Source: an uncultured archaeon (GTDB lineage: Archaea > Asgardarchaeota > Thorarchaeia > Thorarchaeales > Thorarchaeaceae). From it: DNA of 25,972 nucleotides. Of this stretch, positions 1,898-7,311 are shown piece by piece (the stretch's first letter is position 1; each line of letters opens with the position of its first letter). The notes below the pieces were generated by a model. It saw only the letters and a program-made list of their open reading frames with translations, was not told the DNA's origin and did no database searches. Position numbers and translations under genes: made by a program. The stretch is taken from positions 1 to 25,972 of the forward strand of contig CAZPWM010000030.1 in NCBI GenBank assembly GCA_964590575.1, read 5' to 3'.

Positions 1898-2710
1898 TTG
1901 TCCGTGTTACGCAGGTTCACAGGCCGCTCGAAAAAGCCTAAAGAGGAAGAAGAACCACCAGCCAAATCTAGTGCTGATGCTAGCGTAGCTACGAGGGAAC
2001 CTGTAACAGTTGAACCGACATCTCGACCTATGGGAACTTTGATTGCTACAAGTGAAGATGTCAGTTTCGATCCTGCGACCACTGCTGAACACGCCCGGCG
2101 CGCTAGTATCAAACCTCAAAGTGCTGCTGAAATTGTACCTGGTCAAGTCTTGAAACGTGATGAATTAGGCCGGATACACATTAAGATTGTATTCTACGGG
2201 CCTTCTCTCTCTGGCAAAACAACTGCTTTGAGATGGTTATTTGCCAATGTTCGGTCTCTAGCAAAGGGGAAGCTAGTAGAGATCTCTGATGAGCTTGGTC
2301 GTACAACTTTCTTTGATTTTGTTCCTGTGACTGCAAGCGAGCGAATAGTTTTCGATGTATTCACTGTTGCTGGACAGAGACGACATGCTAGTCAACGAAT
2401 CAAAGTTTTACGGGACTGTCATGGTATTATCTTCATGGCTGATTCAACACCTGAACAAATGAATGAGAACCTCGCTTCAATACAAGAGTTGAGAATTGCT
2501 TTAGGTACTGATAGGATGGCGACTCTTCCTATCATAGTCGCATTAAACAAGAGGGACCTCCCGAATGCTTTGCCTCTTGATTACATGGTGCAGATGCTTG
2601 ACCTTGATGGTTATCCAGTGTTCGATACCATTGCCACACAAGGGAAAAACCTTCTGAGAATGTTTCAGCGTGTCCTTCGAGATGCATTGATTTTCAAGGT
2701 GGGTATCTAA
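1898..2710 (+). CDS. mglA: MglA-family small GTPase with ~90-aa N-terminal extension
   Basis: KIVFYGPSLSGKTT (G1), GRTTFFDF (MglA-type Arg/Thr), FTVAGQ (G3), NKRD (G4), TIA (G5). TTG at 1898 follows GGAGGAG; the ORF track starts at 1886. Confidence 0.85.
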   Translation: MSVLRRFTGRSKKPKEEEEPPAKSSADASVATREPVTVEPTSRPMGTLIATSEDVSFDPATTAEHARRASIKPQSAAEIVPGQVLKRDELGRIHIKIVFYGPSLSGKTTALRWLFANVRSLAKGKLVEISDELGRTTFFDFVPVTASERIVFDVFTVAGQRRHASQRIKVLRDCHGIIFMADSTPEQMNENLASIQELRIALGTDRMATLPIIVALNKRDLPNALPLDYMVQMLDLDGYPVFDTIATQGKNLLRMFQRVLRDALIFKVGI

Positions 2711-3441
2711 CCTTTCTTGACAGGAAGAATTCCTTTTCCCAATTGGGTTATGAGCTCTAACAGTTCTTCCTCAGCTTGTTCCATGATAAGTTTGCCTTTC
2801 TCCTCAGAGGCTTTTCTAGGATCTCCGTACATAGCAGATGGGAGAAGCTCGCCTCTATAAGTTCCTGAGATTATAGTGAACTTAGTTTCAACACGGTGAG
2901 CCTCTGCAACAGACATGTCTACCAAGTCCGGGCGAACATGCATCATTTCAGAGGTTTCATCTTCTGCAGCATGTCCCCCTGGGGTTTCCTCCACAATCTC
3001 CCGTATGGATTTAGCCAAGTCTCTCCACCAATTCACGATGATGACCACTCGCTCCCCCTTCCGGGTAGCCTTCTTTGCTGCCTGTCGGATAATCGGATCA
3101 TTTCCACCATGTCCATTTAATGCGACAATGTATCGGAACCCATGTTTGAAGACTGCATTCATAACCGATCTATAGTAATTAACTAACACATCTGGTTGGA
3201 TGGATACAGTACCATCGCACTGGTCGAAATCCCAACTCTCACCAAATGGTATTGTTGGAAGGACAATGGCTTTTGTCTTCTCAGCAACCTTCTGCGCCAA
3301 ATAATTTGGAAGCATTGAATCAGTCCCGAGCGGCAGATGTTTGCCATGTGCTTCAAGAGCACCTGTAACCATGACAATAATCTCGGTCTCACGAGCTGCT
3401 TTCCCGAAGTTCCCGTTTGAGAGTTCAGACCAGAATGGCAT
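2707..3441 (-). CDS. Creatininase / creatinine amidohydrolase family protein
   Basis: GALEAHGKHLPLGTD, NGHGGN, GHAAEDETS. Start set to ATG 3441 (MPFWSELS) because the longer ORF runs through the tRNA. Confidence 0.9.
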   Translation of the reverse strand: MPFWSELSNGNFGKAARETEIIVMVTGALEAHGKHLPLGTDSMLPNYLAQKVAEKTKAIVLPTIPFGESWDFDQCDGTVSIQPDVLVNYYRSVMNAVFKHGFRYIVALNGHGGNDPIIRQAAKKATRKGERVVIIVNWWRDLAKSIREIVEETPGGHAAEDETSEMMHVRPDLVDMSVAEAHRVETKFTIISGTYRGELLPSAMYGDPRKASEEKGKLIMEQAEEELLELITQLGKGILPVKKG

Positions 3442-3547
3442 ATCTAAATCCCAGTAGGTTAACGCGCGCATGCTAATAAATAAGGCGTCATAATTGACAC
3501 GCACAACCGAAAAGATGAAAAACGCCGCGAGTAACTCTCGAGCCAAT

Positions 3548-3623
3548 AGCTCCGTGGTGTAGTGGTCCAGCATGGCGGGTTCTGGCCTCGCTGACCTAGG
3601 TTCAAATCCTGGCGGAGCTACCA
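3548..3623 (+). tRNA. tRNA-Gln (CUG), intron-less, CCA encoded
   Basis: Acceptor AGCTCCG/CGGAGCT plus A plus CCA; D arm GTGT/GCAT; anticodon stem GCGGG/CTCGC with loop TTCTGGC; T arm CTAGG-TTCAAAT-CCTGG; A1-U72 typical of archaeal tRNA-Gln. Confidence 0.96.
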
Positions 3624-3852
3624 TCTTTCCTCAATCATCAGATTCAACCTAATACGATAGGTGGTTATAATCAGACCTCCCATTAACATTAAGATGGGAT
3701 TTCGGTAATATTGTTCAACTTTGGGGACTTGATTGCTAAAAATTGGAGTGAATTTTGATATTTATCTCATCAAACCACCCTTTAGAAAGTCGATAAATGG
3801 AAAATATGTTCGAAAAATGCGAAAAAATCCGCTTTTATTCAATACCACATTC

Positions 3853-4077: not shown

Positions 4078-4857
4078 ATGGACAAGGTAGAACGAGGTTG
4101 GAACGAATTCTGGGCTGAGATTTTCAGAGTCCAGCATCGACGAGCAATTCAGGGGATTGAGCAGTTCGATCAACTTCTTGCGAAATTCATTATCGAAGCC
4201 CTAAACCTCAAGAAGGGTGATGAGATTCTTGATATTGCCTGTGGTGCAGGAGGTCATTCTATTGAGTTTGCCAAGCGAGGTCTCAAGGTGACAGCTTTTG
4301 ACATAGCGCAGTCTCTCATCGATGTTGCCAAGCAGGAGGCAAAAGACGAGCAGGTTGAGATAAACTTCTATGTTGGCGACATGCGTGATATGTCCTTCGA
4401 ACCACGGTTCAAAGCAGCGGTACTATTGAGCCATAGTTTTGGCTTCTTTGACCATCAGGAAAACAAGCTCGTATTGAAAGATGCATATGATGCCTTGCAG
4501 AAAGGTGGTTGCTTATTGTTGGATCTCATGAACCCCTACCATTTACCAACGTTCCAGAAAACTTGGACTCAACTCGAGGGTGGGTTCTTGTTGAATGAAC
4601 CTCATGTCTTTGATGCTCGAGCTGGCGTCCTCACTGGCAGACCTGCCATATTCATAGACACGGAAAACGACTGCATTGTGATGATGGACCAAGATGCTCT
4701 GGCAAACAATGACATCCGAATGTACACAGCCCTTGAGATTCGAGAGATGCTCGAGGAGATTGGATTCACAAAGATCGAGCTATATGGACAACATAGCCTC
4801 CCGCGACTTCCCTATGAAGCAAACTCAGAACGAATGATGGTCATAGCACATCGATAA
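4078..4857 (+). CDS. Class I SAM-dependent methyltransferase
   Basis: ILDIACGAGGH, AFDIA, VGDMRDM, HSFGFF, GGCLLLD. ATG 4078 preferred over GTG 4069. Confidence 0.9.
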   Translation: MDKVERGWNEFWAEIFRVQHRRAIQGIEQFDQLLAKFIIEALNLKKGDEILDIACGAGGHSIEFAKRGLKVTAFDIAQSLIDVAKQEAKDEQVEINFYVGDMRDMSFEPRFKAAVLLSHSFGFFDHQENKLVLKDAYDALQKGGCLLLDLMNPYHLPTFQKTWTQLEGGFLLNEPHVFDARAGVLTGRPAIFIDTENDCIVMMDQDALANNDIRMYTALEIREMLEEIGFTKIELYGQHSLPRLPYEANSERMMVIAHR

Positions 4858-4976
4858 GTGTGATCGATGATTCCTAGGAATATTCTTCCAACTCGCTCTA
4901 GCGCTAGTTGCTATATTTACTAGTATGAAAGGTCATGACGAAATACTTTTAATCATCCACTCGCGAAGTCGCGCTA

Positions 4977-5097
4977 GCCACTGGTGAGGCCGATGGTGAC
5001 CCCGACGAGTTCTCTCGTGTGATAATAGACTGTTGGGGATATGCTATCAAATAGAAACGCGAGGGGACAACACACTAAGCAACAAGGAGAATTCCTT
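4977..5097 (+). promoter_or_regulatory. Structured 5' leader of the EF-2 paralogue
   Basis: BRE/TATA-like CGAAA..TTTTAAT (4939-4953); stems CCCCGAC/GTTGGGG and GATGGT/GCTATC; loop complementary to 5057-5067; AAGGA-GAAT-TCCTT hairpin over the SD. Confidence 0.5.
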
Positions 5098-7311
5098 ATG
5101 GTTAAGATTAAAGAGCCGGAAGCTATCAAGAGGCTCATCCTATCAGACGATTATGCGCACAAGAGAATCATATCGATCAGTGCTCATATTGATCATGGAA
5201 AAACTACTACAACAGACTATCTGATGCGTCGTGCAGGACTCATGAGTGATGCTGCAGCAGGACAGGCACTGATGACTGACAGTGATGAAGAGGAGCAGGA
5301 GCGAGGTATCACAATCTTCACCTCTGTTGTACTGCTCAACTTCGAGGTAGATGGAGAAGAGTATCTTGTTCAACTGTCTGACACTCCAGGCCACCTATCA
5401 TTCACAGGTGAGGTCTCAAGAGCTCTACGTGCCAGCGATGGTGCAGTCATTCTTGTAGATGCGTTGGAAGGCGTCATGACCCAAACTGAAACAAATATTC
5501 GGCTAGCAGTTGGTGCAGAAGCTTGCAAGCCAGTGCTTTTCATTAACAAAGTCGATCGACTCATCAACGAGTTGAAGCTACCACCAAAGAAGGTCTATGA
5601 ACGCATTGATATCATTATCGCGAAAGTTAACGAGCTCATCAAGAAAGTCGCACCAAAGGAGTACGCTCTGGACTGGAGAGTCAGTTTCCAGGATGGAAGT
5701 GTAGCAATCGGAAGTGCGAAGACTGGTTGGGCTTTCACAATGAAGACTTTGGAGAAGAGAGACATCAAACCAACCGTTGTTTTTGAGAAGTACAACGAGG
5801 GCGATGAAAGGTGGCTGAGAGATAACTTACCACTTGATGAGGCTCTCCTCGAGATGATTGTCAAACACTTACCAAACCCACAACAGGCTCAAAAGTACAA
5901 GATTCCAAGAATCTGGAAAGGTGATTTGGACAGCCCAGAAGGAAAAGCGCTTCTAGATGTTGATCCTAACGGACCTCTCTGTGGGATGATTACCAAGATA
6001 TTTGTCGACCCTAAGAGCAAGCGACCAACTCTGATTGGTAGAGTGTTCTCTGGTACAATCAAATCTGGCCAAGAAATTTCTCTAGTCAATATGCGTCAGA
6101 ACGCTAAGGTGAAGCGACTGGGTGTCCAAGAGATTACTGATATTCTAGACATGGATGAGGTGCCTGCAGGCAATCTGTTCTCAGTATTTGGATTCATGTG
6201 CCCTAGTGGCGAGTCCTTTGTCACTCCAGGTTCTGATATGAAAGGGTTTGAAGCCATTGAATATGTCAGCGAACCTGTTGTAAGCCGGAGCATTAAGCCA
6301 GTTGATCCTCAAGAGATTGCGAAGCTCGGTGAGGTTGTTTCAAAGTGGATCATGGCCGACCCCACTGCGAGATTCTTCCACGATAAAGAATCTGGCGAAT
6401 ACCGCCTAGATGGTATTGACCCACTCCAAATTGAAATTCTTACTAAGAGAATTAACGAACAGGTAAAGATTAGGGTGTCTGAACCAATCATTGTCTACCG
6501 TGAGAAGATGACCCAGAGAGGTGACGAGTTTCACACTAAGTCACCAAACGGTCACAACAGAATTCGAATGTATCTGGAACCACTCGATGACAAGACAGTT
6601 GAACTCATCAAAAAGAAGAGAATCACTGCCGATATGCCTGACCGTGAGCGTGCAGCCATTCTTCGAGATGAAGCTGGTTGGGATGCGAAAGAGGCACGGA
6701 AGATTCTAGACATCTACCAATCCTCGATGCTAGTTGATGCGATGAGTGGTGTCCAAAGGTTTGACCGAATCTACTCCTACCTAGAAACTACGTTCAGAGA
6801 ATTCATCGATGGAGGTCCAATTGCGAAGGAGCCAATCATGGGTGTGAAGGTAGTACTGACTGATGCAACAGTTCACAATGACCCTGCGCATACTGGATAC
6901 AACGAGGTTGCAACAATGGTCAGCGCTGGTCTGAATATGGGTTTCCTAACAGGTGTACCAGGACTTTACGAACCTGTTCTCAATGCTGACATAAAGACCC
7001 CCCCTGACACACAAGGCGCAATCATCAAAGTTCTGACTGGGCACAGAGGTCAGATTGTCACAATTGAGGGCGAAGAAGATGTAGTCGCTATTAAGGGCAC
7101 TCTACCTACAGCAGAAACCATCGGTATTGCTGACGAGTTCAGGAGCGCTGCGGCTGGTCGAAGCTTCTTTGGTTACGAGTTTCGCGGATTTGAATCTTTA
7201 CCCACAAAATTGCAGGAAGAGATCATCCTTGAGATTCGAGCTCGTAAGAAGATGCCCGAAGAGATGCCAAGCTTAAGCTCATGGAACAGATGGATTTACA
7301 AACGAACCTAA
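5098..7311 (+). CDS. Archaeal elongation factor 2 paralogue (aEF-2p-like translational GTPase)
   Basis: AHIDHGKTT, RGITI, DTPGH, NKVD, GRVFSG, KSPNGHNR. Diphthamide loop reads HNDPAHTG. No rps12/rps7 neighbours. SD AAGGAG precedes ATG 5098. Confidence 0.9.
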   Translation: MVKIKEPEAIKRLILSDDYAHKRIISISAHIDHGKTTTTDYLMRRAGLMSDAAAGQALMTDSDEEEQERGITIFTSVVLLNFEVDGEEYLVQLSDTPGHLSFTGEVSRALRASDGAVILVDALEGVMTQTETNIRLAVGAEACKPVLFINKVDRLINELKLPPKKVYERIDIIIAKVNELIKKVAPKEYALDWRVSFQDGSVAIGSAKTGWAFTMKTLEKRDIKPTVVFEKYNEGDERWLRDNLPLDEALLEMIVKHLPNPQQAQKYKIPRIWKGDLDSPEGKALLDVDPNGPLCGMITKIFVDPKSKRPTLIGRVFSGTIKSGQEISLVNMRQNAKVKRLGVQEITDILDMDEVPAGNLFSVFGFMCPSGESFVTPGSDMKGFEAIEYVSEPVVSRSIKPVDPQEIAKLGEVVSKWIMADPTARFFHDKESGEYRLDGIDPLQIEILTKRINEQVKIRVSEPIIVYREKMTQRGDEFHTKSPNGHNRIRMYLEPLDDKTVELIKKKRITADMPDRERAAILRDEAGWDAKEARKILDIYQSSMLVDAMSGVQRFDRIYSYLETTFREFIDGGPIAKEPIMGVKVVLTDATVHNDPAHTGYNEVATMVSAGLNMGFLTGVPGLYEPVLNADIKTPPDTQGAIIKVLTGHRGQIVTIEGEEDVVAIKGTLPTAETIGIADEFRSAAAGRSFFGYEFRGFESLPTKLQEEIILEIRARKKMPEEMPSLSSWNRWIYKRT

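Follow-up and report, generated by a model that had tools for sequence, protein, structure and literature searches.

What lies in front of the elongation factor 2 gene in a thorarchaeal genome, and which of the two EF-2-like genes of that genome does it serve? Archaeal elongation factor 2 (aEF-2) is essential and abundant, and few cis-regulatory RNAs are known in archaea. The window, i.e., the whole stretch of 25,972 nucleotides (nt) of contig CAZPWM010000030.1 (assembly GCA_964590575.1, an uncultured member of the Thorarchaeaceae), encodes an EF-2 homolog at 5098..7311. A reading made from the letters of this DNA alone (the sequence-only reading) had proposed a pseudoknotted, switch-like RNA leader upstream of the gene and had assigned it to the paralogue aEF-2p. 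On comparative evidence, the region from the TATA-defined start to the Shine-Dalgarno (SD) sequence is best described as a conserved, structured and strand-specific RNA leader under selection, and the gene behind it is the canonical aEF-2.

A covarying RNA motif upstream of aEF-2

The elements listed by the sequence-only reading are all in place: the TATA-like TTTTAAT (4947-4953), the stem 5000-5006/5032-5038, an 11-pair match between the loop of this stem and a downstream segment, and AAGGA-GAAT-TCCTT before ATG 5098. Comparison of 30 orthologous upstream regions revealed high conservation from GAAATACTTTTAAT and the TATA box to approximately 5050, with nothing alignable further upstream. Within this region, a 73-nt core showed a mean pairwise identity of 73% across 435 genome pairs; for the same pairs, the value was 50% at third codon positions (first 200 codons) and 54% in the 100 nt upstream of the TATA box (optimal global alignment). 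The features of the core are as follows.

4977..5049, + strand: core RNA motif, 73 nt, matched by covariance model R1 (85.7 bits, E-value 4.6e-23)
4979..4985, + strand: 5′ arm of stem P1, supported by covariation
4992..4998, + strand: 3′ arm of stem P1, supported by covariation
5000..5006, + strand: 5′ arm of stem P2, CCCCGAC, supported by covariation
5007..5017, + strand: near-invariant element GAGUUCUCUCG in the P2 loop, invariant in the genus
5032..5038, + strand: 3′ arm of stem P2, GTTGGGG, supported by covariation
5039..5049, + strand: conserved single-stranded tail after P2, ATATGCTATCA, partly conserved class-wide

Base pairing was first counted on a MAFFT alignment comprising 26 of the 33 leaders; those with a longer P1 (L019, L022, L027, L030) or a loop insertion (L026, L031) and the divergent L037 were left out. 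In this alignment, 97.4% of the cells were paired, and changes on both sides occurred at 4 pairs against 1.7 expected, a level reached by 3 of 500 shuffles. A covariance model built from it recovered 66 leaders out of 84 loci. In the resulting model-fitted alignment, which is biased toward the structure but with which the MAFFT count agrees in direction, 96.5% of 892 cells were paired and 11 of the 14 pairs changed on both sides (3.6 expected). None of 500 shuffles attained any of the five measures used, and registers slid along the alignment were paired at 55% or less. The sequence-only reading had named orthologous leaders without compensatory pairing as the outcome that would speak against it, and the pairing found is both conserved and compensatory.

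Both stems contribute to this signal. P1 changed on both sides at all seven pairs, with 95.5% of cells paired among 64 distinct sequences, and P2 did so at four of seven, with 97.5% of cells paired. The arms of P2 lie 25-45 nt apart and enclose a loop of variable length. At one P2 pair, 40 sequences have G-U, 21 have A-U and 3 have G-C; because such wobble cells fit the + strand only, the element would act as + strand RNA, and the earlier argument that G-U pairs confine the structure to the mRNA strand holds. When mutual information was computed for all column pairs, the P1 pairs alone stood out, the remainder reflecting clades, and no pairing partner emerged for the tail 5039-5049.

P2 is the stem that had been recognized from the single sequence, and it is kept class-wide with compensatory changes. 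The helices that had been added around it fared differently. The outward extension GATGGT/GCTATC is not conserved, and 4992-4998 belong instead to the 3′ arm of P1, which had been overlooked. P1 was missed and another outer helix drawn because the window carries the weakest version of this stem, with two G-U pairs and one G-A mismatch (five pairs precede the mismatch and a G-U follows it). The inward extension AGT/ACT is specific to a few species, and the GTGTG/CACAC pairing is seen in the window's own sequence only.

Two further helices were considered and rejected. A closing helix P0, pairing AGCC at the 5′ end with GGCU in the tail, is present in some clades only and does not covary. A pairing of the 5′-terminal GCCA with UGGU in the start region, proposed by RNAalifold, has near-invariant sides, of which the 3′ one is coding, and competes with the base of P1. 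As a separate observation, the 3′ arm of P1 (4979-4998) reads GGUGA and resembles an SD, the 5′ arm reads CCACC and is its complement, and RAGG is frequent in the loop; P1 may imitate an SD/anti-SD helix.

Distribution of the motif

The 3.4 Mb genome to which the window belongs contains a single credible model hit, the one at 85.7 bits, the next best scoring 16.2 bits. Class-wide, 72 of 87 genomes carried a hit at an E-value of at most 0.001; these included 71 of the 85 other genomes of the same family (f1) and represented 14 of 17 genera, and the one genome of family f2 had none. A single hit per genome was the rule, from which G099 departed with two equal hits on separate contigs and G005 with an additional one. 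The candidate second copies were rejected: that of G005 (contig C29, 24.8 bits) is antisense within a coding region, and that of the window's own genome (G000:C82) is the one with only 16.2 bits. All but one of 67 matches (66) sit 6-50 nt upstream of an MVKIK-type start of aEF-2, and the single exception, L106, was discarded as a false hit. Other families of the phylum contributed 16 regions upstream of aEF-2 (L038-L053), none of which matched the model; these leaders are short and AT-rich.

The leader belongs to the canonical translocase

The gene in question was identified from its domains, its loops and the starts of its orthologues.

5098..7311, + strand: aEF-2 gene, 737 amino acids, starting at ATG 5098 (five EF-G/EF-2 Pfam domains, orthologue starts, domain IV loop)

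All five EF-G/EF-2 Pfam domains were matched in the window protein, and a solved archaeal EF-2 (5h7j) matched it over the full length with 567 bits. Its domain IV loop reads HNDPAHTG, i.e., the HxDxxHTG form, and the second loop reads SPNGHN. The same genome encodes a second EF-2-like protein on contig C44 (13544-15589), 36% identical to the first; it lacks HxDxxH and reached 456 bits, and the majority of the best-ranking matches covered its N-terminal part only. According to Narrowe et al. (2018, PMC6143161), aEF-2p has lost the HxDxxHRG and SPHKHN loops of domain IV and with them the diphthamide histidine. Where an Asgard genome has two copies, the bona fide aEF-2 is described there as retaining the diphthamide loop, with Thr in place of Arg (HxDxxHTG). 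Since the window protein has the HxDxxHTG loop and the C44 copy is without it, we assign the leader to the canonical translocase aEF-2 and regard aEF-2p as the separate copy on contig C44. This corrects the earlier assignment of the leader to aEF-2p; with canonical aEF-2 downstream, the leader says nothing direct about that paralogue. The C44 copy itself sits immediately behind another coding region and has no such leader.

The open reading frame (ORF) finder opens the aEF-2 frame at ATG 5041. A comparison with 61 related genomes gave 51 orthologue matches, every one of which begins with the first or second residue counted from ATG 5098, and the in-frame extension upstream, which runs from 5041 in the window, differs in length among orthologues. 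Because the matches begin there and the upstream open frames vary in length, ATG 5098 was taken as the true start. A conserved upstream ORF or N-terminal extension from ATG 5041 was rejected, as this codon is not conserved and is AGG in other species. Many genera use TTG or GTG as the start codon of aEF-2. In G082 (L190/L189, G082:C7:68347-70556), the aEF-2 match falls into two pieces with one internal TGA, for which a frameshift, an assembly error or a broken gene are possible explanations.

A loop element with a changing partner

The P2 loop contains the near-invariant element GAGUUCUCUCG. It recurs in divergent leaders missed by the model, as the full word in G063 and as GAGUUCUCU in G082 and G036. 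In some genera it is shortened to CCUUCU, and G064 has a CUUCU form together with compensated P1 and P2. In the genus of the window, part of the element belongs to a long-range helix with the following arms.

5010..5020, + strand: 5′ arm of the long-range pairing, TTCTCTCGTGT, kept in the genus
5057..5067, + strand: 3′ arm of the long-range pairing, ACGCGAGGGGA, in the window's genus only

The two arms form 11 pairs in the window, three of them G-U. Across the genus, UUCUCUCGYG pairs with CRCGAGRGRA approximately 40 nt downstream, with 8-11 pairs in 25 of 25 sequences. Position 9 of the helix is U-A in 14 sequences, U-G in 7 and C-G in 4, and thus paired in all 25; the sister species L021 and L023 differ by C-G versus U-A at one long-range pair. 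Opposite the three internal U positions (2, 4 and 6), the 3′ arm alternates between A and G, and opposite the three C positions it has G, with the exception of a single position in two sequences that are almost identical. Five sequences do not retain the terminal U. One pair only changes on both sides, and MAFFT misplaces a gap in five rows of the alignment. We regard this helix as a plausible feature that is conserved, genus-specific and weakly covarying, though statistically unproven. The pairing on which the sequence-only reading based its pseudoknot is kept throughout the genus; it is a genus-specific feature and not a family-wide core.

In most other genera, the loop element pairs locally as a hairpin, P3, inside the P2 loop. 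The linker between motif and start codon is 45-50 nt in the window's genus and 6-37 nt in other genera, which lack the long-range 3′ arm. P3 was found in at least five complementary forms (GAGUUC/GAACUU, UAGUUC/GAACUA, GAGUUU/AAACUU, UAAUU/AAUUG, and GAGUU/AACUC or AACUU). At least five contiguous P3 pairs were present in 19 of 29 distinct sequences from other genera versus 1 of 16 in the window's genus, and the excess over shuffled loops was modest (4.83 versus 4.16). Judged from these alignments, the loop element is evidently always given a partner, and that partner differs by lineage, being P3 locally or the long-range helix. Such an exchange of the same conserved bases between a local hairpin and a long-range helix would represent a clear case of RNA structural rewiring.

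Promoter, transcript start and ribosome-binding site

The sequence surrounding the motif contains the following features.

4940..4953, + strand: promoter, a purine-rich stretch resembling the B-recognition element (BRE) and the TATA box (GAAATACTTTTAAT), where conservation begins
4962..4973, no strand assigned: 12-bp palindrome CGCGA-AG-TCGCG, a candidate DNA operator read from the sequence, between the TATA box and the inferred start and outside the RNA
4976..4977, + strand: inferred transcription start, from the usual archaeal TATA spacing and the fixed TATA-to-motif distance
5084..5097, + strand: SD sequence AAGGAG in a weak hairpin AAGGA/TCCTT, read from the sequence

The distance between the TATA box and the beginning of the motif (GCCAC) is fixed at approximately 24 nt in all 65 loci, of 66, for which the upstream flank was available; the remaining one, L086, is cut at its contig end. 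Archaeal transcripts usually start at a set spacing from the TATA box. Given this usual spacing and the fixed TATA-to-motif distance, the mRNA probably starts near 4976-4977, so that the structured domain would form its extreme 5′ end. Most species of the window's genus retain the palindrome at 4962-4973, which is missing from other genera; its site, between TATA box and inferred start, is a typical position for an archaeal repressor site.

Transcription was checked with contigs of four metatranscriptome runs, from relatives 85-99% alike, placed on 4700-5600. In one run, contigs spanning 4995-5144 and 5005-5423 connect the leader with the coding region, and the contigs of two other runs begin at 5064 and 5074. 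No contig of the four runs covers 4700-4994, a mere lack of coverage that was not used as evidence on the start. The joined contigs lend weak support to a transcribed leader. They are likewise weak evidence against a start downstream of about 5070, the other outcome that had been named as contrary to an RNA leader.

The SD type differs by clade: AAGGAG in the main clade of the genus, and a GGTGA type in one sub-clade and most other genera, as assigned by the customary consensus, the 3′ end of 16S rRNA being absent from the assembly. An RNA thermometer would keep its SD in a weak and imperfect hairpin; the AAGGA/UCCUU hairpin, of 2-5 base pairs, recurs in the main clade of the genus only and has no equivalent in other clades. 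No conserved pairing that masks the SD was found across the leaders compared. Two candidates for such a role were rejected, namely UUCUCU, whose 5-6 pairs with AAGGAGA are seen in the main clade but not in clades with a GGUG-type SD, and the P1 5′ arm CCACC as anti-SD for GGUGA, as the P1 sequence stays unchanged when the SD type changes.

A putative translational operator and its alternatives

What could such a leader do? The reading that we prefer, with our confidence about evenly balanced for and against it, is that the leader serves as a protein-bound translational operator specific to this lineage. Its 5′ domain, 4977-5049, would be recognized in trans by a protein that in the simplest case belongs to the translation apparatus and might even be aEF-2. 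As this domain ends 6-50 nt before the start codon, the protein, once bound, would impede the small ribosomal subunit and so modulate the output of aEF-2. A protein is favored over a metabolite as the ligand because the element is confined to a single class, has one locus in each genome and precedes a translation gene, the pattern described for ribosomal-protein leaders in PMC7247131.

Several results weigh against such an operator. The single-sequence fold of 4975-5110 is unremarkable (z -0.61; 54 of 200 shuffles fold as well), and the support for structure is therefore comparative, not thermodynamic. The long-range helix, 96.5% paired on the MAFFT alignment, did not exceed its shuffle control (152 of 500), weak statistics that follow from the invariance of its 5′ arm. 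The motif is not indispensable, as G031 and G087 (genus g5) keep the gene behind a short leader without it. No imitation of the ribosomal site was apparent, the best local alignment to the genome's own 23S rRNA scoring 24 against a shuffled mean of 28.3, and we know of no instance of aEF-2 binding RNA off the ribosome. RNA libraries can carry DNA, and contigs cannot show a start. Finally, the SD and start codon are predicted to be mostly accessible in nearly all orthologues listed, with a probability of about 0.3-0.8 that the SD window is unpaired; this openness and the absence of a conserved SD-masking pairing favor a bound factor over a simple self-contained switch.

The same accessibility, with no OFF state visible, would also suit a constitutive 5′-terminal structure in which P1 and P2 shield this highly expressed mRNA from decay at its 5′ end or serve as a fixed enhancer or standby site, with neither ligand nor switching. 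P1 opens 2-3 nt after the inferred start, the change of loop partner between lineages would be tolerable in a stabilizing role, and the motif could be dispensed with in G031 and G087. Yet a protective hairpin needs no particular sequence, and here GAGUUCUCUCG, the outer CAC/GUG of P1 and the tail are conserved far above neutral sites; moreover, the element serves one gene per genome, though many mRNAs would gain from a generic stabilizer. We consider this explanation unlikely, though it is the most serious of the alternatives. A riboswitch, in which the P1-P2 junction, loop and tail form a pocket for a small molecule or ion and the long-range helix or P3 acts as expression platform, appears less probable still. 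Riboswitches keep their aptamer core over their entire range and respond to the ligand with an alternative pairing that hides the SD or forms a terminator. Covarying stems with conserved unpaired bases fit that architecture, as do the pseudoknot topology of the genus and its mutually exclusive pairings, in which CUCG can pair with an upstream or a downstream CGAG. However, the element is found at a single locus per genome and in one class, the supposed core is rebuilt between genera (P3 versus the long-range helix), and the masking of the SD by UUCUCU does not extend to clades whose SD is of the GGUG type, complementarity being absent there. No Rfam riboswitch matches, and no obvious metabolite is tied to aEF-2.

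Two other explanations have very little in their favor. A small RNA gene in its own right that happens to lie in front of aEF-2 would account for the promoter and the compact 73-nt structured core, but the 13-31 nt between core and start codon in most genera leave no space for a second promoter, no T-run follows the core, RNA-library contigs connect core and coding region, and the element is always linked to aEF-2. Equally improbable is conservation at the DNA level, through inverted repeats bound by a transcription factor, or by chance or coding constraint. P1 is indeed an inverted repeat, and the true palindrome 4962-4973 lies just upstream. The arms nevertheless change together and keep complementarity rather than sequence, the G-U pairs would become A-C mismatches on the opposite strand, and the P2 arms stand 25-45 nt apart with variable loops. 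Coding constraint is contradicted by one- and two-base gaps in the alignments and by the lack of a conserved ORF, AGG replacing ATG 5041 in other species.

Returning to the protein-bound operator, a more specific version of it can be formulated, which we offer tentatively and with distinctly less confidence. Here the element would be a feedback operator of the translocase gene: with aEF-2, its paralogue aEF-2p or a ribosomal protein bound to the GAGUUCUCUCG platform, ribosome demand would determine how much aEF-2 is made. The window's genus may have rewired this platform from a local hairpin to a long-range pseudoknot together with the change of SD type. How archaea match the level of aEF-2 to ribosome number is, to our knowledge, unknown. 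If the operator reading is correct, Asgard archaea would have in this leader their first lineage-specific cis-regulatory RNA, and if aEF-2p were the ligand, it would open a first functional route to that paralogue. With its small size, clear limits and approximately 70 natural variants, the element is directly testable.

Other observations in the genome

The 16S rRNA gene (G000:C73:13812-16104) is 2293 bases long, whereas the model has 1478 positions; the approximately 800 extra bases may represent an intron or an expansion, and the contig end cuts the gene before its 3′ terminus. In the window, the longest ORF of a creatininase-family gene (2707-3624, - strand) overlaps a tRNA-Gln(CTG) gene (3548-3623, + strand). 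Its Pfam domain begins at residue 67, and the real start is thus probably further downstream. A gene for an Arf-family small GTPase (1886-2710; Pfam Arf, E-value 7.5e-9) is a eukaryote-like signature typical of Asgard archaea.

Comparison with known RNA families and regulatory systems

Rfam 15 at gathering thresholds identified only the tRNA-Gln in the window. When the E-value limit was raised to 10 for 4800-5200, five weak matches appeared, none of them over 4940-5098; the suggestion of a cis-element of unrecognized type thus agrees with the absence of any matching Rfam family. No Asgard cis-regulatory RNA and no leader of an archaeal elongation-factor gene was found in the abstracts and main-text passages searched. 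Comparison with the genome's own 23S rRNA and its 16S rRNA without the 3′ end gave short word matches at chance level only. Two 8-mers shared with 23S rRNA (1719-1741) were dismissed, their joint alignment score lying below the shuffled mean, and mimicry of the sarcin-ricin loop by 5057-5068 was rejected, this segment varying among species and having no similarity to 23S rRNA.

Kink-turns (K-turns) consist of a helix, a three-base bulge and tandem sheared G-A and A-G pairs, and L7Ae binds them in archaeal 5′ untranslated regions (UTRs). Like the L7Ae leaders, the present element is an archaeal 5′ UTR structure that would bind a translation-related protein, and some genera have three bases followed by GA after P2. 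Unlike a K-turn, the window's genus has three bases followed by UG after P2, and the L019 clade lacks the A before P2. The K-turn is not conserved, because the tandem G-A pairs are not kept across clades, nor was a conserved kink-loop (K-loop) found in the P1 loops. The link to L7Ae that had been suggested consequently finds no support.

H-type pseudoknots are exemplified by the rpsO/S15 operator and the preQ1 riboswitch classes. The window's genus resembles these in that the loop of a hairpin can pair in crossing order with sequence further downstream, P2 being stem 1 (7 base pairs) and the putative long-range helix stem 2 (10-11 base pairs). The geometry differs in that approximately 12 unpaired nt separate the stems (5020/5021-5031) and approximately 19 follow stem 1, so that no compact coaxial fold results. 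In contrast to H-type operators, the second stem occurs in one genus only, and the same bases form a local hairpin elsewhere.

Close parallels are offered by leaders of ribosomal-protein genes, for which archaeal candidates have been described for S15, eL15 and L4 (PMC7247131). The text of that paper makes no mention of elongation factor, fusA, Asgard or Thorarchaeota. In contrast to those leaders, the gene here encodes an elongation factor, the element does not resemble 16S or 23S rRNA, and it has no homology to an Rfam leader. Of what marks an operator, the conserved 5′ UTR structure of a translation gene beside the ribosome-binding site was found, and resemblance to an rRNA site was not. 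Like the ribosomal-protein leaders of PMC7247131, the element is a covarying 5′ leader of a gene of the translation apparatus, restricted to a lineage, present at one locus per genome and situated near the ribosome-binding site.

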